Shown: piece by piece, positions 16,478 through 28,866 of the stretch
Position numbering within the stretch: position 1 is the stretch's first letter
How the letters are laid out: each line of letters starts with the position of its first letter
Origin: Candidatus Hydrogenedentales bacterium
GTDB lineage: Bacteria; Hydrogenedentota; Hydrogenedentia; Hydrogenedentales; SLHB01
Length of the DNA: 64,000 nucleotides
NCBI GenBank assembly: GCA_050950105.1
Contig: JBMNGZ010000008.1
Location: 22,167-86,166 of the forward strand
Reading direction: 5' to 3'
The notes under the pieces: generated by a model
Database searches by the model: none
Seen by the model: only the letters and a program-made list of their open reading frames with translations
What the model was told of the DNA's origin: nothing
Program-made: the position numbers and the translations under genes

Positions 16478-18781
16478 ATGACGGATCCAGAAGAACACCT
16501 TGCCGAAGACAGCTTCCGGCCCCTGGAGGCGGCGCGCGAAGGCGCCTACGACGAGCAGCTGCGCTTTGATTCCCCGCTGATGCGCCCCTCGGCGCCCGTG
16601 CGCATGGTCATCAAACGCGATGGCCGCGAAGAGCCCTACGACAAAAACAAGATCGCTGCCGCGATCCTGCGGGCCGCAGACAGCGCCGGCGAGGGTGACC
16701 GCGATCGTGCCATGAGTCTCGCCTCCGGCGTGACCATTTTTCTCAGCAAACGCTTTGAGGGCCGGGCGCCCACGGTGGCTCAGGTTCAGGATGCGGTTGA
16801 GAAAGTTCTGCTGGAAATGGGCCATGCGCGAACCGCCCTGGCCTTTGCGCGCCACCGGCGCAAACGGACCCGCGTCACCCGGCTGCGCCAGGGCGACCTC
16901 CATCATCTGCTCGATGAATTCGATGAAGCTCAATGGGAGCAGCGGCTTCGCGATGAAACCCACCAGGGCGCCCTCTTTGTCCGGACCAGCAGCGAGACCC
17001 TCTCCGGGTGGGATCGCTCGCGCATCGTCGATGCGCTGGTGCGCGAAACCCGGCTCGACCGCGCACGTGCTGAATCCATCGCGCTGGAGGTCGAGGCACA
17101 AATCCTGTCGGCCGGGATCAGCCCTCTGACCACGGCCCTCGTGCGGGAACTCGTCGACGCCAAACTCGCCGAACGCGGTCTCGAAGAATTCCGCCGCCGC
17201 CATATGCGGATCGGCGTCCCTCTGTACGACGCAGAACGCATCATCTGCACACCGGGCGAAACCGAGCGGATGTGCCGCCAGGACCCGGAGACGACCGACC
17301 GCTTCCTCGCGCAGCGGGTGAAGCGTGAATATGCCCTTACGCAGGTATTCTCCGAGCGCATCGTCGATGCCCACGTTTTCGGCGACCTGCACCTCTGCGG
17401 CCTGGGCTATGTCGACCGCTTTCAGGGTTTTTCCGCACCCATCGACTTTCTCGTGCGCTACGGTGGCGGGCTCCCGGGCGTATCCCGCCAGGCCGCTCCG
17501 CCTCAAGACCTGGAAGGCTTGTTGGTGCAGCTGGGCCGATTCCGGACGCAGGTCGACGCCCATTTCGCCGGGCCGGTCACCTGGGACATGCCCCACGTGT
17601 ACCTCAGCCCATTCCTGGATAACGCAACTGCCCAAGAACGGCAGCGCGCAGCACAAATTCTGCTCTTTGTGCTCGGCACGGACGCCGCACAACGCGCGGC
17701 AAAACCAGAACTCACCCTGAGCTGGGACGTCCCCGCACGGCTGGCGCGCCGAAAAGCCGAGGGACCGGCCCACGCCGTCGACGGCCGGGTCTACGCGGAT
17801 TTCGAATCGCTCGCCCAAGAACTCATGGAAGACATTCTGGCCACCTACCTCCAGGCCAACACCACGAACCGGCCCCTGCTGAGGTTCGTCCTCGACCGTT
17901 CCACATTTGCCCGCCGCGGCTGCCGCAGCGTCCTCGTGCGTCTGGCCGAAACGGCCCTGGCCAGCGGACTCCTCGAGATTGAGTTTGACCGCCCCTGCGA
18001 CGATGCCGCGAGCCCGCCTCCCCGGGACGGCAGCCCTGTGGCTCATGTGGTCAATCTAAACCTGGCGCGTATGGCCTTTCGTTCCGCAGACGAAACGGCA
18101 CTGATGGAAAATCTCGACGCCCTGGTTGATCTGGCCGCACAGGCGCACCAGGAAAAGTGCGCGTTTTTTGAGCGGCTCGTTGCGCTGCGCGCGCTCGGTC
18201 CCTTCGTGTTCCTCGCGGAGACGCCCGCGCATCCGCCCCTGTTCGATATCTCCAAGGCGGTCTATACCATTGCCGTGGACGGGCTCAGCGAATGCGTCGA
18301 AGCGCTTTGTGGAGCAGGGCCGCAGCAGTCCGGCGATGCCCAGGCGCTGGCGCTGCGCGTGCTGACCCGCCTCGCGGAAGGATGCCGGATCGCAAGCGAC
18401 CGCACCGGCTTGCGCATCGTGCCCGCCCAGGCCCGGTATGAATCCTCGGTCCGCCGTTTCGCGGCGCTCGACCTCCGGCCCTTCCCCGAGGAGGCCCGGC
18501 GCGTTGCGAAGAGCGATCCCATCACCCAGGACATCCACTATACGGCGGGAGCCCGTGTCGCCCGAACTGCCACCTGCACTCCGAGCGAGCGTGCCCTGCT
18601 GGAAGGAGAATTGCAGGCGCTTGTGTCTGAAGGCGCTCTTTCCCGCATCGAATTACCCGACATGGAGACCAGTCCGGAGGCCGTCGCCAGTTTTATTGAG
18701 ATGACATGGCGCCGCACAAAAATACGCCACCTGCTCCTGGAACGTCGCGGCGCGCCCACCGGATACCTGGTATACGAATGA
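16478..18781 (+). CDS. ATP-cone domain protein, putative ribonucleotide-reductase-like (class III NrdD-like N-terminal region) lacking a recognizable glycyl-radical C-terminus
   Basis: It has an N-terminal ATP-cone (VRMVIKRDGREEPYDKNKIAAAILRA) and a second ATP-cone-like segment. A GDLHLCGLGY motif resembles the GxIHIHD region of NrdD. The C-terminal 100 aa contain no CxxC pairs or RVxGY motif. The gene lies directly downstream of nrdR. Confidence 0.4.
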   Translation: MTDPEEHLAEDSFRPLEAAREGAYDEQLRFDSPLMRPSAPVRMVIKRDGREEPYDKNKIAAAILRAADSAGEGDRDRAMSLASGVTIFLSKRFEGRAPTVAQVQDAVEKVLLEMGHARTALAFARHRRKRTRVTRLRQGDLHHLLDEFDEAQWEQRLRDETHQGALFVRTSSETLSGWDRSRIVDALVRETRLDRARAESIALEVEAQILSAGISPLTTALVRELVDAKLAERGLEEFRRRHMRIGVPLYDAERIICTPGETERMCRQDPETTDRFLAQRVKREYALTQVFSERIVDAHVFGDLHLCGLGYVDRFQGFSAPIDFLVRYGGGLPGVSRQAAPPQDLEGLLVQLGRFRTQVDAHFAGPVTWDMPHVYLSPFLDNATAQERQRAAQILLFVLGTDAAQRAAKPELTLSWDVPARLARRKAEGPAHAVDGRVYADFESLAQELMEDILATYLQANTTNRPLLRFVLDRSTFARRGCRSVLVRLAETALASGLLEIEFDRPCDDAASPPPRDGSPVAHVVNLNLARMAFRSADETALMENLDALVDLAAQAHQEKCAFFERLVALRALGPFVFLAETPAHPPLFDISKAVYTIAVDGLSECVEALCGAGPQQSGDAQALALRVLTRLAEGCRIASDRTGLRIVPAQARYESSVRRFAALDLRPFPEEARRVAKSDPITQDIHYTAGARVARTATCTPSERALLEGELQALVSEGALSRIELPDMETSPEAVASFIEMTWRRTKIRHLLLERRGAPTGYLVYE

Positions 18782-19921: not shown

Positions 19922-21106
19922 CTATTCTGCGTCAGCCGCCGGTTGCGGTTCCAGCGCCGGCGCCTCGGCCGGTGGGTCGGCCGGCGCGATGTCTTTCAGC
20001 GTTACCGTAAAAGTAGAACCTTCGCCGGGTTCGCTGTCCACCTTGACCTTGCCCGCATACAGCAGGGCCAGCTTTTTCACGATCGACAAGCCCAGACCGC
20101 TGCCCAGGATGCCCGAGGTGCTCGAGTTCTTGATCCGCACGAAGTCATTGAACAGTTTCCCCGCTTCGTCTCGGGTCATTCCGATGCCGGTGTCTTTCAC
20201 CGCGATGTGGAGGAGATCCTCGTCACGGGAGAGCGTGACGGCAACGTGTCCATCGTCCTTGTTGTATTTCACGGCGTTCGAGATGAGATTGTTCATGATA
20301 ATCTCAAGTTCGCCCGTGTCCGCCCACAAGAGCATATCGCCCGTTTGATGCAGGTCGATGCTGATCTTTCGGGACTGTGCTTCGGGGAGAAAGGTCTCGA
20401 TCGCGCGCTCCGCCATGCTTCCGGCGTCCACACGTTCCATCTCGCGCCGTTTCTGGCCGGATTCGATGCGCGTCAGGTCCAGCAGGTCGGCAATCATTTT
20501 TCGCATCCCCTGGATCCGGTCCAGGCAGCGAAAAATGACCTGGTTTATGGCCTGTGGATTTTCGCCGAGGGTCCCATCGCGTACGACGTTCAAATAGCCT
20601 TCGATGGCGTTAATCGGCGCTTTGAGTTCATGTGCGAGCACTGAAATGAACTGAAAGCGCACCTGGCGCTTTTCCTGGGCCAGCCGGCGCGCCTGGCGCG
20701 CCACCATCAGGTGCATGGCCGCTTTCGTAACCGTACTTTTCAGTTCCGTCGGAGTGAAGGGTTTTGCCAGAAAATCGTAGGCCCCCTGTTTCGTGGCGCG
20801 CACTGCGGTCTCGATCGACGCGTAGGCCGTGATCATCACGGTCAACGTTTCGATGTCTCGCTTATGCAGCTCCTCCAGCACATCCAGGCCGCTGATGCCG
20901 GGGAGTTTCAGGTCGAGCAGCAGGATCTGGGGCGGCTCCGCTGTAATTTTCTCAAGCGCTTCCTCGCCGGTCTCCGCCAGTTCCACCTGGAACTGCACGG
21001 ACTCGTCCATGTCGGGGATGTCCACGCTGAAATCGCGCAGGGCGCGTGCAACCCCCATGCGCATGCCCATTTCGTCGTCACAAACCAGCAGCTTCAGCGT
21101 TTCCAT
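19922..21106 (-). CDS. hybrid response-regulator/histidine kinase (REC-HisKA-HATPase_c)
   Basis: The start at METLKLLVCDDE (GGGAG Shine-Dalgarno upstream) gives a receiver domain with DDE...D...K positions (LLLDLKLPG). The H-box is LAHELKAPI. The N, G1 and G2 boxes are NLISNAVKYN, DTGIGM and GSGLGLSIV. Confidence 0.75.
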   Translation of the reverse strand: METLKLLVCDDEMGMRMGVARALRDFSVDIPDMDESVQFQVELAETGEEALEKITAEPPQILLLDLKLPGISGLDVLEELHKRDIETLTVMITAYASIETAVRATKQGAYDFLAKPFTPTELKSTVTKAAMHLMVARQARRLAQEKRQVRFQFISVLAHELKAPINAIEGYLNVVRDGTLGENPQAINQVIFRCLDRIQGMRKMIADLLDLTRIESGQKRREMERVDAGSMAERAIETFLPEAQSRKISIDLHQTGDMLLWADTGELEIIMNNLISNAVKYNKDDGHVAVTLSRDEDLLHIAVKDTGIGMTRDEAGKLFNDFVRIKNSSTSGILGSGLGLSIVKKLALLYAGKVKVDSEPGEGSTFTVTLKDIAPADPPAEAPALEPQPAADAE

Positions 21107-21224
21107 AGTACTCCCTTCGGCCGGTGGCGTCGATTGCCCGTCAAGGCCGCGTGGCGCATGGACCGCCACCACATCCAACATCCGCTCTGCTCTGGTACGC
21201 GCCCGATGGCGCCCGGCGGCCAAA

Positions 21225-21617
21225 TCAGCGAATCAGCCGCTCGATTTCGTGTTGCAGTTGTTCAAAACGGACCGGCTTGTCCAGCAGCGCATCGGCTTTG
21301 ACCCAGGCGCGCTCCTCTTCCGTCGCCGCATCGAAGGCCATGCCGGTCTCGTTGGCGACACCCGTGCAGATTACCACAGGACATCCGGGATAGGTCTTTT
21401 TGATCTCCCGGCACAAGGTGAAGCCCGCATCCATTTCTTCCATCATCAGGTCGATCACGGCCATGTCCGGCTGGGTGGAACGCAAGAGATTGCGCGCTGC
21501 GTTCAGGCCTGCTGCGGTAAGCACTTTGTATCCCGCTGCTTCAAGCTGCACTTTCTGCTGAAAGAGAAAGTCTTCGTCGTCATCAACTACCAGGATCATC
21601 TTTTTCTCGTCGCTCAT
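21225..21617 (-). CDS. single-domain response regulator (CheY/Spo0F-like receiver)
   Basis: A 130-aa protein with ILVVDDDEDF, the phospho-acceptor region AVIDLMM, and a conserved K in LLDKP. It has no output domain. Confidence 0.75.
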   Translation of the reverse strand: MSDEKKMILVVDDDEDFLFQQKVQLEAAGYKVLTAAGLNAARNLLRSTQPDMAVIDLMMEEMDAGFTLCREIKKTYPGCPVVICTGVANETGMAFDAATEEERAWVKADALLDKPVRFEQLQHEIERLIR

Positions 21618-21753: not shown

Positions 21754-23820
21754 CTACGCGCCCAGCAACTCTTCTTCGCCGCCCAGGCCGATGCTCATCT
21801 CTACGGATTCCGGCTGGCCGGTCTGCCTGTGCCGAGGCAGCGAGATCTTGAATGTTGTGCCTGTCTGCCCCTTGGCCGGGTCTGAATTCGATTCCACGCG
21901 GATGTCTCCATGGTGCATTTTGACGATGCCGTAGGTCACCGCCAAGCCCAATCCTGTGCCAACACCGAGTTGTTTCGTCGTGAAAAAGGGGTCGAAAATC
22001 CGCGAGAGGTTCTCTTTTTTGATGCCCGTGCCTGTATCGACGATCTGCAGCATAATCCGGTCTGCTTCGTCCGTCAGCCGAACCGTCAGCACTCCGCCGT
22101 CGGGCATCGCCGCGAGGGCATTGCCAACCAGATTGGCCAGCACCTGCGTCATTTGATCGCGATCGATATCCGCCATGGGGACGCTCATTTCGTTCTCAAA
22201 CCGGACTCGTACGTTCTCGGGCACCGTGTTCGCTCGGAGCACGTGCTCGAGCATGTCCCCAACGTCGACAGACTCGAAAAGGACCTTGTTCTGTCGCGCA
22301 AAGTGCAAGAGCCCCGCCACGATCTTCTTGCAGCGGTCGGCATGCTCCGAGATCATCTGGAGGTCTTCCAGCATTTGGACATTCCCGCCGAACTCATCCT
22401 TGATGATGTGGGCGTACATCAGCACGATGCCCAGCGGGTTGTTCAATTCGTGTGCGATGCCCGCGGCCAACTGGCCCATGCTCGCCAGCTTTTCCGACTG
22501 CACCAGGGCCGACCGCGCTTCCGCGAGCTGCTCGTTCGACTGATTGAGATCCTGGATGGTCGTCGCCAGCAGCTCGATCGTGTGCGGGAGGCACATCGCG
22601 GTTTCCGCCAGCCCTTTGTAGATCGCAATGGCATGTTCGCGGCAGGTCTCGTATCCGCAGGCGCCGCAATTGAGCTCGTCGCCCGGTAAAAACTTGCCCA
22701 TCCGCTCCATCAGCTCGCGGATCTGACCCTCCGACGGCACCGCGATCCGCTGATCGTCCGGCCGGTACGTCCGGCTCAAGTCCAGCGTGCTGAATTCCTG
22801 CATCGCGTCCGCCCACTCCGCCTCGGCGGCGTTTTTCATGCGGCGGCGCACATACGAGCTTACCCGGCAGCGCCGGACGTATTGCGGGTCCTGGTTCGTC
22901 GTCCCCGGCCCCATGATGCAGCCTTTGCAGGCGAGGGTTTCCAGCAGACGCACCTCAAAAAATCCCGCTGCAAACTCGCTGATCGCTTCAGGAAAATCGA
23001 CGCGACCATCCGCCACCGCCACATTGCCGTCAACGAGGTCCTCGACAATGTTAGCCGCCTGCAGAAGGCCCCGGCTGACCGGGAACAGACCGCCGTAGCG
23101 CGCGTGTGGCGGGTCAAAATTGCTCGCATCGACCGATTCCGGCGTGATGTTTCGCGCCGCCAGCAGCGCCTGCAATTCGGCGAAAGTCAGGACGCTCTGT
23201 ACGTCATCGGGCAGCTCGTCGCTCGCGGCCTCGCCTTTCTTCGCGATGCAGGGGCCGATGAACACAATCTTCAACCCCGGTCCATGCTGCTTATGCAGCA
23301 CGCGCGCCATCGCCACCATCGGCGACACGATGGGCGCCAGCGATGTGACCAAGTCCGGCTGGTAGCGCTGCACGTACGCCACAATGGACGGGCAGGTCGT
23401 TGCCACAAAGCGCTTATCCTGCGTCGTTTCGATCAGCTTTCGGTATTGATCCGCCACAAGATCGGCGCCAAAGGCCACCTCGTGGACATAATCGAAGCCA
23501 AGCGCGCGCAACATGCCCACGACGCGCTCGTACTCGCAATCATCGAATTCCACTGGAAAGCTCGGTGCGAGCAGCGCCGCCACCTTAGCTTCTCCGGCCA
23601 GCAGCGCCTCGACCTCCGCCTTGGAATCCCAGACGCGTTTCGCGCCCTGGCTGCACACGCGAACACAGTTGCCGCAACCAATGCACCGGCTGCAGATCAC
23701 ATCCGCCTGACCGTCCACGATGCGGATGGCTTTCGCGGGACATTCCCGCACGCAGGTGAAACAGACGCGGCACCGTTCTTTAATGGTGGTGACCAGCGGT
23801 ATGTTGGATGCGCTTTTCAT
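21754..23820 (-). CDS. [FeFe]-hydrogenase-like sensory protein: 2x[4Fe-4S] ferredoxin + H-cluster domain + extra Cys motif fused to a HisKA/HATPase_c histidine kinase
   Basis: The N-terminus has CRVCFTCVRECP and CSRCIGCGNCVRVC. The H-domain has L2 (GPCIAKKGE) and L3 (ETLACKGCIMGPG), but L1 reads ATTCPSI instead of TSCCPxW. An extra CGACGYETC...C motif follows. The kinase part has the H-box IAHELNNPLG, N-box LVGNALAAM, and G-boxes DTGTGI and GLGLAV. Confidence 0.7.
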   Translation of the reverse strand: MKSASNIPLVTTIKERCRVCFTCVRECPAKAIRIVDGQADVICSRCIGCGNCVRVCSQGAKRVWDSKAEVEALLAGEAKVAALLAPSFPVEFDDCEYERVVGMLRALGFDYVHEVAFGADLVADQYRKLIETTQDKRFVATTCPSIVAYVQRYQPDLVTSLAPIVSPMVAMARVLHKQHGPGLKIVFIGPCIAKKGEAASDELPDDVQSVLTFAELQALLAARNITPESVDASNFDPPHARYGGLFPVSRGLLQAANIVEDLVDGNVAVADGRVDFPEAISEFAAGFFEVRLLETLACKGCIMGPGTTNQDPQYVRRCRVSSYVRRRMKNAAEAEWADAMQEFSTLDLSRTYRPDDQRIAVPSEGQIRELMERMGKFLPGDELNCGACGYETCREHAIAIYKGLAETAMCLPHTIELLATTIQDLNQSNEQLAEARSALVQSEKLASMGQLAAGIAHELNNPLGIVLMYAHIIKDEFGGNVQMLEDLQMISEHADRCKKIVAGLLHFARQNKVLFESVDVGDMLEHVLRANTVPENVRVRFENEMSVPMADIDRDQMTQVLANLVGNALAAMPDGGVLTVRLTDEADRIMLQIVDTGTGIKKENLSRIFDPFFTTKQLGVGTGLGLAVTYGIVKMHHGDIRVESNSDPAKGQTGTTFKISLPRHRQTGQPESVEMSIGLGGEEELLGA

Positions 23821-23828
23821 ACTTGACC

Positions 23829-25550
23829 TCAGATCATAACCTCGCGTTTGGCGTAGTGTGTGTGGAGCAGTTGGTGGCTCTTTTCGCCGAGCGGCTCGCC
23901 CAGAAACTCTTCGTAGAGCCGTTGGATCGCCGGATTTCCGTGCGAGGTGCGCACGGGCTCGTCCCGGTCGATCGTATACAGCGCCTGCATCCGCGCCCGG
24001 ATGGCGTCCGGGTCTGCGTTGAGCGGTTGCCCGCCGCCCGCGATGCAGCCGCCGGGGCAGGTCATCACTTCGATGAAATGAATGTCGTCGCGCCCGTTGC
24101 GAATTTCTTCCAGCAAGAGCCGCGCGTTCTGCAGGCCACTGACTACCGCTACGCCAATCGGGATGCCGTTAATCTCAAGTTTGGCCTCTTTGCGCCCCTC
24201 GAACCCTCGGATCGCTTCCACTTTGAGGCCGGGCAGTTCCTCGCCGGTCAGCAGGTAGTGTGCCGTGCGGATCGCCGCTTCCATCACCCCGCCGCTCGCG
24301 CCGAAAATCTTGCCCGCCGTGCTGCGCTCGCCAAACGGCGTATCGGCGTGTTCGGGGGCCAGCGATTGCATGTCCATGCCGCGCATGCGTATGACCCGCG
24401 CCAGTTCCCGCGTGGTCAGGACCGCGTCGACATCGGGCCTGCCGTCCCGGGAATGTTCCGGCCGTCCCGCTTCGAATTTCTTGGCCACACAGGGCATGAT
24501 CGCCACACTGAAGATATCCTCTGGAGCGATACCTTCCCGCTCCGCGAAAAACGACTTGATCACCGCTCCCATCATCTGCTGCGGGCTCTTGCAGGTCGAG
24601 AGGTTGTCGATCATTTCCGGGTAGAACTCTTCCACAAATTTGATCCAGCCCGGCGAACAACTGGTCATCATGGGAAGTTTTCCGCCGGTGCGGATGCGAT
24701 GAGCCAGTTCCGAGGCCTCTTCCATGATCGTCAGGTCCGCCGAAAACGACGTGTCGAACACCTGGTCAAAACCGAGTCTGCGCAACGCCGCCACCAGCAT
24801 GCCGTCTACGTCCGCGCCCGGTTTCAGACCGAATTCCTCGCCCAGGGTCACCGACACGCTCGGCGCGTGCTGCACCACCACGAGCTTCGTGGGGTCTGCG
24901 ATGGCATTCAGCACTTCCTTGATATAACTCTGCTCGCGCAGCGCGCCTGTCGGGCACACCATGATGCACTGGCCGCAGTTGATGCAGCTCGAAACGTTGA
25001 GCCCTTCGCTGAACGCCGTTCCGATCACGGTCTGGCTGCCGCGGCCCACAAAATCGATGGCCGAGACTCCCTGCACTTCCTCACACACGCGCACGCATTT
25101 CCCGCAGAGGATGCATTTGGCGGGCTCGCGTACGATGGCGGGGTTCGACGAATCCACATGGTATTCATTCTTGCCGCCCGAGTAGCGCCGTTCACGCACG
25201 CCCAGCTCATTGGCCAGACCCTGCAGGTCGCAATGGCCGCTGCGCACGCAATACAGGCAATCGTCGGGGTGGTTCGCGAGCAGCAGCTCGATGATCGTCT
25301 TGCGCGCTCGCAACGCCCGGGGCGAATGCGTCTGGACCCGCATCCCGTCCCGTACCGGGTAGGCGCAGCTCGGCACCAGCGCCCGCTCGCCCTCCACCTC
25401 AACCGCGCACATGCGGCAGGCGCCCGTCGGGAACAGGTTGTCCATGTTACACAAGGTCGGCACCGTAATGCCGTTCCGTTTCAGCGCATCCAGCAGCATC
25501 TCGCCGCTTTTCGCCTCAATCTTCCGGTTATTGACTTCGATGCTAAGCAT
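23829..25550 (-). CDS. hydA: [FeFe]-hydrogenase catalytic subunit HydA (NuoG-like N-terminal FeS domains + H-cluster domain)
   Basis: The start is at MLSIEVNN (GAGGAA Shine-Dalgarno; the upstream in-frame ATG at 25577 overlaps the hydB stop region). It has a 2Fe-2S site (CNMDNLFPTGACRMC), a His-ligated cluster (HPDDCLYCVRSGHC) and 2x CxxCxxCxxxCP motifs. H-cluster motifs L2 (MPCVAKKFE) and L3 (EVMTCPGGCIAGGGQP) are canonical, while L1 is MMTSCSPGW (a Ser where the second Cys is expected). Confidence 0.85.
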   Translation of the reverse strand: MLSIEVNNRKIEAKSGEMLLDALKRNGITVPTLCNMDNLFPTGACRMCAVEVEGERALVPSCAYPVRDGMRVQTHSPRALRARKTIIELLLANHPDDCLYCVRSGHCDLQGLANELGVRERRYSGGKNEYHVDSSNPAIVREPAKCILCGKCVRVCEEVQGVSAIDFVGRGSQTVIGTAFSEGLNVSSCINCGQCIMVCPTGALREQSYIKEVLNAIADPTKLVVVQHAPSVSVTLGEEFGLKPGADVDGMLVAALRRLGFDQVFDTSFSADLTIMEEASELAHRIRTGGKLPMMTSCSPGWIKFVEEFYPEMIDNLSTCKSPQQMMGAVIKSFFAEREGIAPEDIFSVAIMPCVAKKFEAGRPEHSRDGRPDVDAVLTTRELARVIRMRGMDMQSLAPEHADTPFGERSTAGKIFGASGGVMEAAIRTAHYLLTGEELPGLKVEAIRGFEGRKEAKLEINGIPIGVAVVSGLQNARLLLEEIRNGRDDIHFIEVMTCPGGCIAGGGQPLNADPDAIRARMQALYTIDRDEPVRTSHGNPAIQRLYEEFLGEPLGEKSHQLLHTHYAKREVMI

Positions 25551-25580
25551 TGCCGTTCCTCGTTCGAGCGCGTCCACGCG

Positions 25581-27656
25581 CTATTGTTTGCCCATGCGGT
25601 AAAGCGCCGCGCCTTCATGCCAGTCTTCGAAAGCGTCCGATGCAAACACGCTCAAGGCCTGCTCACTCTCGCGGCGTTCACGGTCGATCTCTTCCGCGCC
25701 CGGAATCCGAAGCCGTGCGGCGTGTATCGGGCACACGTCCACACAGGTCCCGCAACCGATGCACTTGTCCTCAATGATGTAATGCACTTTTTTCGGCACG
25801 CCCACGATCGCCCCGTCCACGGGGCAACGCTGCGCGCAGAGGGTGCAGCCGTCGCACAATTCCACGTCGATCTCGAAGGAGCGCAGCTCCTGGCAGACCC
25901 CCGCGGGGCAGCGCCGCTCGTAGATGTGGGCCTCATATTCGTCGCGGAACCAGTGCAGTGTGCTCAATACCGGGTTCGGGGCCGTCTGGCCCAGGCCGCA
26001 GAGGCTCGTGTCGCGAATGACCTCGGCCGTCCGATTGAGCATCATGACGCCTTTGAAGCGTTCGAGCGCCTGGAATTTCGATTCGCTTTTGCGGCCCCGC
26101 GTGATGCGTTCGAGTATCTGGAGCATACGCAGCGTGCCTTCCCGGCAGGGGATGCATTTTCCGCAGCTTTCCCGCTGGATGAACTCCATGAAGAACTTGG
26201 CCACGTCGACCATGCACGTGTCTTCGTCCATCACGACCAGGCCGCCGGAACCCATCATCGCGCCCACGGTCTTCAGCGATTCGTAATCGATGGCGATGTC
26301 CAGATGCTGGTCGGGGATGCACCCGCCGGAGGGACCGCCGATCTGCACCGCCTTGAATTTCTTTCCGCCCGGGATCCCGCCGCCGATATCAAACAAGACC
26401 TGGCGCAGCCGGGTGCCCATCGCCACTTCGACCAGGCCGGTCAGCGCGATCTTGCCGGAGAGCGCAAACACCTTGGTGCCTTTGCTCGTCTCCGTGCCTA
26501 TCGCCGCGAACGCTTCCGCTCCTTTTTCCGCAATCCGCGGGACATTCGCCAGGGTCTCCACGTTGTTGATGATCGTCGGTTTATCAAAGAGGCCCCGGAC
26601 GGCCGGAAACGGCGGGCGGGGACGAGGCATGCCCCGTTTCCCTTCGATGCTGTTGATCAATGCGGTCTCTTCGCCGCATACGAAGGCGCCCGCGCCCATC
26701 TTGATCACGATCTCGAGGCTGAACCCGCTGTCCTGAACGTTGTCGCCGAGGAAACCGCAGTCTTTCGCCTCGGCAATGGCGTGCTGGAGCCGTTTGATGG
26801 CCAGCGGATACTCGGCCCGGATATAAATGTAAGCCTTGCTTGCGCCGATGGCGTACGCCGCAATGGCCATGCCTTCCAAGAGCCGGTGCGGGTCGCCTTC
26901 AATCACCGCCCGGTCCATGAACGCACCCGGATCGCCTTCGTCCGCGTTGCAGACCAGATACTTGCGGTCGCTGGTCGTGCTCAGCGCGAATTTCCATTTT
27001 TTGCCCGCTGGAAACCCGCCGCCGCCCCGGCCGCGCAGCCCGCTCTGTTCAACCAGGTCGCAGACCTCGGCCGGCGTCATGGTATGAATGACTTTCGTCA
27101 GAGCCCGGTAGCCGCCGCTCGCGACATATTCTCCCAGACTCGATGGATTGATGATCCCGCAGTTCTTCAGCACCCAGCGCGTCTGCGGCGCGAAGAAAGG
27201 ATGTTCCGAAAGCCGGTCAACGTTATGCCAGGGCGCCACGCCCGGCGTGGTGAACTGGCCCAATACCATGTCCGTGGGGATCGTCTCCGACAGCACGCTT
27301 TCCAGTAAAGGCTTGACCTTGTCTTCCGTCACGTGTTTGAACGAGACGCGCGGCTTGCCCGGCAGCTGAATGTCCACCAGGGGCTCTTCGGCGCACAACC
27401 CGATGCACCCCACTTCGACAATCTCGGCGTCAATGTTGCGCAGGCGCAAGAACGCCCGGATCGCATTGAGCGACTTGCCTGCGCCCGCGCCCAGGCCACA
27501 GGTGCCCGCGCCCACGTAGATCGTCGGGCGCTCCGTCCGTTCGCGGCGCAGCAGCCGCAGTTGTTCTTCATAGTCCGCACGCACGGCCTCATCGAGGTCC
27601 GGCGTGAGACCGCATGCATAGTTTAATAAACCGTTCAGGCTGGCCGGCGGTTTCAT
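25581..27656 (-). CDS. hydB: NADH-binding hydrogenase subunit HydB (NuoF-like flavoprotein with thioredoxin-like [2Fe-2S] and C-terminal 2x[4Fe-4S])
   Basis: The start at ATG 27656 is preceded by AAGGAAA, which overlaps the hydC stop. It has the NADH/FMN motifs GRGGGGFPAGKKW and ESCGKCIPCREG, and the C-terminal clusters CDGCTLCAQRCP and CIGCGTCVDVCP. Confidence 0.9.
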   Translation of the reverse strand: MKPPASLNGLLNYACGLTPDLDEAVRADYEEQLRLLRRERTERPTIYVGAGTCGLGAGAGKSLNAIRAFLRLRNIDAEIVEVGCIGLCAEEPLVDIQLPGKPRVSFKHVTEDKVKPLLESVLSETIPTDMVLGQFTTPGVAPWHNVDRLSEHPFFAPQTRWVLKNCGIINPSSLGEYVASGGYRALTKVIHTMTPAEVCDLVEQSGLRGRGGGGFPAGKKWKFALSTTSDRKYLVCNADEGDPGAFMDRAVIEGDPHRLLEGMAIAAYAIGASKAYIYIRAEYPLAIKRLQHAIAEAKDCGFLGDNVQDSGFSLEIVIKMGAGAFVCGEETALINSIEGKRGMPRPRPPFPAVRGLFDKPTIINNVETLANVPRIAEKGAEAFAAIGTETSKGTKVFALSGKIALTGLVEVAMGTRLRQVLFDIGGGIPGGKKFKAVQIGGPSGGCIPDQHLDIAIDYESLKTVGAMMGSGGLVVMDEDTCMVDVAKFFMEFIQRESCGKCIPCREGTLRMLQILERITRGRKSESKFQALERFKGVMMLNRTAEVIRDTSLCGLGQTAPNPVLSTLHWFRDEYEAHIYERRCPAGVCQELRSFEIDVELCDGCTLCAQRCPVDGAIVGVPKKVHYIIEDKCIGCGTCVDVCPIHAARLRIPGAEEIDRERRESEQALSVFASDAFEDWHEGAALYRMGKQ

Positions 27657-27669
27657 CGCTGTGGTTTCC

Positions 27670-28170
27670 TTATTCATCGGTTTCGACCTCTTCGCGGAGT
27701 TCATCCAAAATGTCACGGACCTTTTGAGGGGTCAGATTTGCGTAAAACTCGCCGTTGATGCTGATCACGGGCGCCAGACCGCAGGCGCCGATGCATGCCA
27801 CAACTTCCAGGCTGAACAGGCCGTCGCGCGTCGTTTTGCCGGGTTCAAGCGCCAGATCCTGCCGGATCGCGTCCAGGACCCCCAGCGAGCCCTTTACGTG
27901 GCACGCCGTGCCACGGCAGACTTGAATGTGATAACGCCCGAGCGGCTGAAAACGGAACTGGTTATAGAAGGTCGCCACACCGTAGATCTTGCTTGCCGGA
28001 AGCTGAAGATGTTCGCCGATACGCGCGATCGCTTCCCGTGACAGGTAGCCGTGTGTCTCCTGAACGTCCTGAAGCAGGGGGATCAGGGCATCTCGCCCCG
28101 CACCCGCGTGCCGCTCAAGAATCTCCCCAATATCCGGCTGCACGGCCGGCTGTCCCGTAATGGTGCTCAT
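27670..28170 (-). CDS. hydC: hydrogenase [2Fe-2S] subunit HydC (NuoE-like)
   Basis: Shows CRGTACHVKGS...CIGACGLAPV, a thioredoxin-like 2Fe-2S ferredoxin signature. It overlaps the rex stop by 4 nt. Confidence 0.85.
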   Translation of the reverse strand: MSTITGQPAVQPDIGEILERHAGAGRDALIPLLQDVQETHGYLSREAIARIGEHLQLPASKIYGVATFYNQFRFQPLGRYHIQVCRGTACHVKGSLGVLDAIRQDLALEPGKTTRDGLFSLEVVACIGACGLAPVISINGEFYANLTPQKVRDILDELREEVETDE

Positions 28171-28805
28171 GACATGGTTTCCTTCTGCGACGCCCGAAGG
28201 CCCGCAAAAAACGCGACCTTCTCCAGCGCCATACTCAAATCCAGGTTCTCAATGTATACATGCGGCGGAACCCAGAGGTGCGTGGGGGCAAAATTCAGCA
28301 GGCCCGACACCCCCGCACGGCAAAGACGCCGCGCGGTGTCCTGGGCCACGGCCGACGGCACTGCGATGATGCCCACCCGGATCCCTTCCGATTCCACAAC
28401 CTCTTCCAACTGCGGCATCGGATAACACCGGCACCCGTGAATCACCCGGTTCACTTTCGTCTTGTCGTTGTCGAAAGCCGCGACCAGAGGGATACGCGGA
28501 TTGCGCCGCGGCGAAAACGCCATCAGCGCGCGACCCAGGTTGCCGATGCCCACCAACGCCACTTTCTGCGCGTCGGAATGAAACAAAAAGTCGTTGATGC
28601 TTCCCGCCAGAGCCGCTACGTCGTAGCCGCGAACCGGGCTCCCGGTGTAGCCCGTGGCCATCACGTCCCGACGGACCTGCGCCGCCGTGCATCCCGACCG
28701 CGCGGCCAGCTCATGTGAAAACACATGCTGCTGCCCGGCGTCCTGCATCGCCAGCAGGACCCGCCGGTACACACTGAGCCGGGCCACGGTTTTATCGGAA
28801 ATCAC
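28167..28805 (-). CDS. rex: redox-sensing transcriptional repressor Rex
   Basis: The N-terminal winged helix (TVARLSVYRRVLL) and a Rossmann-type NADH-binding domain (VALVGIGNLGRALM) are present. I place the start at GTG 28805 (GAGGAA Shine-Dalgarno 5 nt upstream) rather than ATG 28844, because ATG 28844 lies inside a Rex operator. Confidence 0.8.
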   Translation of the reverse strand: MISDKTVARLSVYRRVLLAMQDAGQQHVFSHELAARSGCTAAQVRRDVMATGYTGSPVRGYDVAALAGSINDFLFHSDAQKVALVGIGNLGRALMAFSPRRNPRIPLVAAFDNDKTKVNRVIHGCRCYPMPQLEEVVESEGIRVGIIAVPSAVAQDTARRLCRAGVSGLLNFAPTHLWVPPHVYIENLDLSMALEKVAFFAGLRASQKETMS

Positions 28806-28833
28806 GGCAATTCCTCGCGGTTTACGGTAGAAC

Positions 28834-28866
28834 TGTGAAGACATTCACGCTGTGATTCGTTTCACA
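28834..28866. promoter_or_regulatory. two tandem Rex operator sites (TGTGAAGACATTCACG and TGTGATTCGTTTCACA)
   Basis: Both match the TTGTGAA-N4-TTCACAA Rex consensus (the second with one mismatch). They are separated by 1 nt and sit 30-60 nt upstream of the proposed rex GTG start, at the head of the rex-hydCBA-sensor operon. Confidence 0.6.

Follow-up and report, generated by a model that had tools for sequence, protein, structure and literature searches.

A natural Cys-Ser variant of the L1 motif in HydA of a putative electron-bifurcating [FeFe]-hydrogenase operon from Hydrogenedentota

Serine in place of the L1 cysteine that ligates the [4Fe-4S]H subcluster is an already known variant of [FeFe]-hydrogenases, documented generally, structurally, and for the Hydrogenedentota. 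It occurs in ~20 % of sequences (Kertess et al. 2017, PMC5855289). In the same study each cubane ligand of Chlamydomonas reinhardtii HydA1 was mutated; numbered on the mature protein, as was done there, the L1 ligand is C115 and the adjacent relay cysteine C114. Variants C115S, C115A and C115D were poorly loaded with [4Fe-4S], took up no [2Fe] and were inactive. Alanine variants at the other ligands retain a [4Fe-4S] cluster, which may be coordinated by solvent. The HydABC complex of Acetobacterium woodii, solved at 3.4 Å under H2 (Katsyv et al. 2023, PMC10021017), carries serine naturally: its HydA1 (PDB sequence 7q4v_A) reads TSCSPGW, Ser301 is modelled as a cluster ligand, and the enzyme has a normal H-cluster FTIR signature and bifurcating activity. 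At 3.4 Å the Fe-O(Ser) bond is part of the model and is not directly resolved in the map. Within the Hydrogenedentota, 195 BfuABC clusters have been catalogued, and four of the five BfuA sub-types have serine at the P1 position; the authors themselves call the effect of motif changes of this kind unvalidated (Zheng & Huang 2024, PMC11406978). The heptad TSCSPGW was also noted in confurcating hydrogenases of Melainabacteria, which were contrasted with an enzyme having “all the necessary residues” (Di Rienzi et al. 2013); this paper was the only relevant match in a full-text literature search for “TSCSP”. Strict screening for TSCCPxW has been used in some surveys (Poudel 2018).

The hydA gene described here lies on the minus strand of the window, the whole stretch of 64,000 nucleotides that was analysed (Table 1). 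Its open reading frame (23829..25577) has 582 codons, but the true start is almost certainly Met10 (at 25550), giving a protein of 573 aa, the length also called in independent contigs. It matches database cluster P0001 at 100 % identity; that entry comes from a Candidatus Hydrogenedentales MAG and bears the NCBI name “NADH-dependent [FeFe] hydrogenase, group A6”. HydA scores above the cut-offs of NCBIfam NF040763 (“group A6”; 839 bits, cut-off 765) and TIGR02512 (503 bits, cut-off 406), and matches the Pfam models PF02906 (E=3e-94) and PF02256 (E=9e-25). Residues 9-214 contain the Fer2_4, NADH-G_4Fe-4S_3 and Fer4_Nqo3/Fer4 domains of Pfam, i.e. the N-terminal [2Fe-2S] and multiple [4Fe-4S] F-clusters of the M3 type.

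Table 1. Genes and motifs of the hydrogenase locus, with positions in the window.
Feature	Position	Strand	Remarks
hydA/bfuA, 573 aa	23829..25550	-	M3-type [FeFe]-hydrogenase large subunit: 2Fe-2S and 4Fe-4S F-domains, H-domain, small-subunit-like C-terminus
hydB/bfuB, 698 aa	25581..27677	-	NuoF-like FMN/NAD subunit with N-terminal extension and C-terminal 2x[4Fe-4S] ferredoxin domain (Pfam)
hydC/bfuC, 166 aa	27670..28170	-	NuoE-like thioredoxin-like [2Fe-2S] subunit; above NuoE-family model cut-offs
rex, redox-sensing transcriptional repressor	28167..28844	-	immediately upstream of hydC, 4-nt overlap
Sensor-type [FeFe]-hydrogenase-like protein with HisKA/HATPase_c (“BfuT”)	21754..23820	-	L1 ATTCPS, relay Cys replaced by Thr
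Response-regulator receiver protein	21225..21617	-	downstream of sensor; conserved in independent contigs
Hybrid response-regulator/histidine kinase	19922..21223	-	start may be later: called as 394-419 aa elsewhere
L1/P1 motif MMTSCSPGW of hydA	24645..24671	-	
Ser299 codon TCG (573-aa numbering)	24654..24656	-	CpI Cys300 column, L1 ligand of the [4Fe-4S]H subcluster
Cys298 codon TGT	24657..24659	-	CpI Cys299 column, proton relay to the adt bridge
L2/P2 motif MPCVAKKFE	24471..24497	-	Cys equivalent to CpI C355
L3/P3 motif EVMTCPGGCIAGGGQP	24024..24071	-	Cys equivalent to CpI C499 and bridging C503
1166-aa open reading frame	23808..27308	+	antisense to hydA and hydB
Anaerobic ribonucleotide reductase (NrdD with ATP-cone)	16478..18781	+	near the hydrogenase operon

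Transcription on the minus strand runs in the order rex, hydC, hydB, hydA, sensor, receiver, hybrid kinase, and the rex-hydC-hydB-hydA-sensor context is the same in those independent contigs that are long enough to show gene order. HydB, which is called at the same length in independent contigs, matches NfnB and the HydB subunits of A. woodii, T. kivui and T. maritima over residues 50-656 (E 1e-182 to 1e-214); its near full-length matches also include NiFe-HydB. The adjacent NuoF-like HydB and NuoE-like HydC, together with an M3-type HydA, are the features of HydABC/Bfu enzymes (HydDB group A3), so that the operon is, as far as gene content can tell, of the electron-bifurcating HydABC type. 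A reading of hydA as the large catalytic subunit of such an operon, made earlier from the DNA alone, is thus borne out by Pfam and by the full-length family matches of HydB and HydC.

The position of rex directly upstream of hydC, an arrangement kept in independent contigs, means that the operon probably responds to NADH/NAD+ besides the sensor kinase. The sensor protein is the counterpart of the “BfuT” described by Zheng & Huang 2024 (PMC11406978). Its motifs are ATTCPSIV (L1), GPCIAKKGE (L2) and the L3-like ETLACKGCIMGPG, and it also contains an FeS domain (PF04060). Together with the receiver protein and the hybrid kinase it has the look of a phosphorelay that senses H2 or redox state and is joined to the hydCBA operon. 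No H-domain genes besides hydA and the sensor gene were found in the window. Given the strong family matches of the minus-strand genes, the long plus-strand frame opposite hydA and hydB is almost certainly spurious, kept open by a GC content of 62 %. The nearby gene for an anaerobic ribonucleotide reductase is consistent with an anaerobic or facultative lifestyle.

Among described systems, the BfuA proteins of group A3 in Hydrogenedentota (PMC11406978) come from the same phylum (cluster P0001 and relatives L001-L003 are all Hydrogenedentota MAGs) and share the M3a architecture, the C-B-A-T gene order and the kinase-bearing T subunit. From gene order and domains, the protein is most likely a BfuA of sub-type V of Zheng & Huang 2024, in which bfuT with a His-kinase domain adjoins bfuA. 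The A. woodii enzyme (HydA1 in PDB 7Q4V, 7Q4W and 8A5E; HydABC(D)) shares with the query its L1 heptad, with serine in the ligand column, its M3-type domain organisation and its HydB/HydC partners. However, its host belongs to the Bacillota, the operon described here carries rex and a sensor-kinase module in addition, and A. woodii HydA1 is only 46 % identical to the query, the Cys-Cys enzyme of T. kivui being closer (51 %). HydA1 of Thermoanaerobacter kivui (PDB 8A6T) and CpI of Clostridium pasteurianum agree with the query in fold, in the remaining H-cluster ligands, and in the residues of proton path and pocket, but have cysteine at the L1 ligand (canonical TSCCPxW).

In the translation of hydA, L1 is embedded in GGKLPMMTSCSPGWIKFVEEF, and its codons on the minus strand, from 24671 to 24645, are ATG ATG ACC AGT TGT TCG CCG GGC TGG. 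The sequence-only reading had reported Cys-Ser (TGT-TCG) in place of Cys-Cys, together with the L2 and L3 motifs of Table 1, and all three are found in the translation as it gave them. It had placed L1 at 24642..24665, a segment that spells T-S-C-S-P-G-W-I and has the critical codons inside, but is offset by ~3-6 nt from the motif quoted. HMMER alignments of HydA with CpI, T. kivui HydA1 and A. woodii HydA1, all of solved structure, contain zero gaps from CpI E279 through S319, which puts the serine exactly in the Cys300 column; a MAFFT alignment mapped to CpI numbering likewise assigns the query cysteine to the C299 column and the serine to C300. Comparison with these characterised enzymes therefore confirms what simple alignment had proposed, a serine in the cluster-ligating column with the proton-transfer cysteine kept.

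Outside this one column, every catalytic residue checked is that of CpI (CpI numbering). The remaining ligand columns C355, C499 and C503 are all cysteine, every residue of the proton path (C299, E279, E282, R286, S319) is the same, and so is every residue of the pocket (A230, P231, S232, P324, Q325, M353, K358, E361, F417, M497). HydA thus has the features of a group A catalytic subunit, i.e. H-domain and C-terminus above curated cut-offs, the L2/L3 cysteines, the proton path and the pocket. Assignment to the sensory [FeFe]-hydrogenases (group C, HydS type) was considered and rejected: the relay cysteine (C299), M353 and K358 are kept, and HydA is without a fused signalling domain. Sensory-type features, namely loss of the relay cysteine, an altered pocket and a signalling fusion, are shown by the neighbouring sensor protein.

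The 27-nt L1 sequence, ATGATGACCAGTTGTTCGCCGGGCTGG, is identical in seven contigs that were assembled independently of one another, from separate runs or samples (JGI 3300060823, SRR8925717, SRR8925752, SRR31061295, SRR8925760, SRR8925749 and ERR14141146), and so is the 573-aa HydA in all seven assemblies. Beyond these assemblies, serine occupies the L1 ligand position in 78 of 80 GTDB species-representative genomes whose HydA is 68-96 % identical to the query. These genomes are spread over Hydrogenedentota, Planctomycetota, Latescibacterota, Marinimicrobia, Acidobacteriota, Lentisphaeria, KSB1, Fibrobacteres, Myxococcota and others. All six serine codons are used among the 78 (TCG 52, TCA 9, TCT 8, TCC 7, AGT 1, AGC 1), and since serine is kept in nearly every genome with such varied codons, the pattern reads as the signature of purifying selection holding the residue across a long divergence. 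The earlier statement that the codon is not a base-call error is upheld by the seven assemblies and the species genomes. The accompanying argument, that it lies two changes from any Cys codon, is correct for TCG itself (two substitutions from TGT/TGC), but the TCC and TCT codons of relatives are a single step away. In one close relative (L005, 83 % identical) the codon is TGC, and the motif reads TSCCPAW instead.

Cys-Ser (C-S) is also the rule in the immediate protein family: with proteins clustered at 90 % identity, the nearest 120 clusters (72-100 % identical to the query) include 117 with C-S and three, closely related, with TSCCPAW. For a wider view, an exhaustive HMMER search of 1.84 billion 50 %-identity representatives gave 2,832 proteins at E<=1e-30, of which the best 150 were classified by their L1 motif. 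Among these 150, Cys-Cys (C-C) accounts for 93, C-S for 27 (18 %, in agreement with the published ~20 % of PMC5855289), loss of the first cysteine (x-C) for 22 and other forms for 7, with one protein lacking coverage of L1. The L2 cysteine and both L3 cysteines are kept in 16 of the 16 C-S representatives with a complete H-domain. Residues replacing the second cysteine are otherwise very restricted: one C-A and one C-T occur among 142 aligned H-domains, and Ala, Gly or Thr after a cysteine in the first position is almost never seen.

HydA reads TSCSPGW and so departs from the strict L1 consensus TSCCPxW with its two adjacent cysteines, while agreeing with the relaxed published form xTSCxPxW (Zheng & Huang 2024). 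Since 18 % of the diverse representatives and a published ~20 % of sequences have serine, that of the active A. woodii enzyme among them, the strict motif does not truly define group A HydA. On the evidence of its sequence, with serine in the CpI-C300 column, the preceding relay cysteine kept and a loop without indels, the query belongs to a widespread natural class, TSCSPGW, that is predicted to use serine as L1 ligand of [4Fe-4S]H. The view that the motif is non-canonical and unexpected for a catalytic enzyme finds no support in these counts (117/120 clusters, 78/80 genomes, 18 % of diverse representatives) or in the active precedent in A. woodii; TSCSP is common and apparently functionally tolerated in this HydA clade.

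The C-S proteins do not seem to form a single group. On a rough neighbour-joining tree of 142 H-domains (BLOSUM62 distance, no bootstrap) they are scattered, with ~14 switches between C-C and C-S among 116 taxa, a count that is indicative only, vs ~25 (minimum 21) for shuffled labels; a single origin of C-S is rejected on this basis. No H-domain position tracks the serine tightly, the largest frequency difference between 16 C-S and 86 C-C non-redundant sequences being 0.48. There are weak tendencies in C-S proteins towards Gly after the Pro (13/16, vs 35/86 in C-C) and a residue other than Phe three positions before the Cys. Compensation by an extra cysteine was also considered. At the CpI-A321 position (LSTCKSP) both the query and A. 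woodii carry Cys, against Ala in CpI and T. kivui, but C-C proteins have this Cys just as often, the close TSCCPAW relatives among them, and the idea was rejected for that reason. The sole C-C close relatives of the query, L005 and P0021/P0023/P0024 (all Hydrogenedentota, 83-86 % identical), have TSCCPAW throughout; in them the change from Ser to Cys goes with one from Gly to Ala after the Pro, a weak local coupling.

Two other kinds of H-domain protein turned up in the representative library. The x-C proteins (TSSCP, ISACP and similar, e.g. P0132, P0144, P0148, P0153 and P0162) make up ~15 % of the M3-type HydA-like representatives. They are full-length, have lost the relay cysteine, and are degenerate both in L2 context (e.g. 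SSCTAAKTE) and in pocket residues; these paralogs are probably non-catalytic or sensory. P0121 is a protein of 4122 aa with seven tandem H-domains, in which L1 is TSCCASW or TSCCAGW, with Ala where L1 otherwise has Pro, L2 is MPCTVKKTE and L3 is EIMMCEGGCMNGAGQP.

The most satisfactory explanation, and one we hold with considerable confidence by analogy with A. woodii, is that HydA is a functional catalytic subunit (BfuA) whose cubane would be ligated by three cysteines and the O-gamma of Ser299, with Cys298 as the proton relay. The serine oxygen would replace the thiolate of CpI Cys300 as fourth cubane ligand, the other three ligands, bridging cysteine included, would be unchanged, and Cys298 would keep its usual role of passing protons to the azadithiolate bridge. 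We infer that the ligand, FTIR and activity behaviour of the 46 %-identical A. woodii homolog also holds for the query protein. The engineered C. reinhardtii HydA1 C115S (C170S in precursor numbering) is the same chemical change at the same ligand position, but it is inactive, with little [4Fe-4S] and no [2Fe], whereas the natural serine enzymes appear to be maintained by selection and are active in A. woodii. Because the engineered variant loses most of its [4Fe-4S] cluster and is inactive, ligation by serine is context-dependent; the covariation scan of the H-domain brought no determinant of this context to light.

A first alternative is a swap of register, with Cys298 ligating the cubane and Ser299 left as a bystander or weak proton relay. 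The A. woodii map, at 3.4 Å, would strictly be compatible with such an arrangement too, but Ser301 is the ligand in the deposited model, that enzyme is normal in FTIR signature and activity, and in the query the flanking T-S and P-G-W, along with the whole E279-S319 block, align without gaps. The state of the remaining proton path is also informative. The residues E279/E282/R286/S319 and the pocket residues M353/K358/M497 are 93-100 % conserved in C-S proteins and 90-98 % in C-C proteins, and the x-C proteins, which have lost the relay cysteine, are degenerate at the same residues (E279 9 %, M353 4 %, K358 19 %). That C-S is conserved like C-C while x-C is degenerate argues against a register swap, which we regard as improbable, and equally against a non-catalytic paralog.

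Marginally less probable again is a cluster held by three cysteines only, in which Ser299 is unbound and the fourth Fe site is occupied by water or hydroxide, or left open. This idea draws on the alanine variants of CrHydA1 at the other ligands, which keep their [4Fe-4S] cluster, possibly with solvent. An unbound residue would not explain why serine specifically should be under purifying selection in 78/80 genomes with six codons, nor the near absence of alanine, glycine and threonine from this position in the 142 H-domains, and in the A. woodii model the serine is a ligand.

That hydA might be a non-catalytic or sensory paralog, or a decaying gene, is suggested by its mismatch to strict TSCCPxW and by the true sensor-type paralog that adjoins it, but seems very unlikely: the reading frame is intact within a conserved hydCBA operon, CpI has the same residue at all the other catalytic, ligand and proton-path positions, the C-S class shows conservation of the catalytic type unlike that of the x-C sensors, and a homolog sharing the motif, that of A. 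woodii, is active in bifurcation. A sequencing or assembly error at the serine codon can be set aside as having a negligible chance, given identical motif DNA in seven independent assemblies and the same residue, under varying synonymous codons, in relatives 68-96 % identical.

Ligation of the cubane by Ser299 alongside three cysteines thus stands as the preferred reading of this locus. As regards mechanism it brings nothing new, since hydA is here one of thousands of serine examples. The question of switching between cysteine and serine is real but not specific to the hydA locus. One speculative and rather doubtful idea is that the choice between them at the L1 ligand is a recurrent tuning knob (~14 switches on the rough tree), available only in a permissive M3/HydABC scaffold. 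If this were true, the exchange would shift, in bifurcating hydrogenases, the potential of [4Fe-4S]H, the catalytic bias, the kinetics of maturation or the robustness against oxidation, and its confinement to a permissive scaffold could account for the loss of activity on making this change in the algal enzyme. A more practical consequence concerns the search for these enzymes: strict screening for TSCCPxW would wrongly drop about one-fifth of genuine catalytic [FeFe]-hydrogenases, and the losses would include most HydABC enzymes of Hydrogenedentota, Planctomycetota and related phyla.
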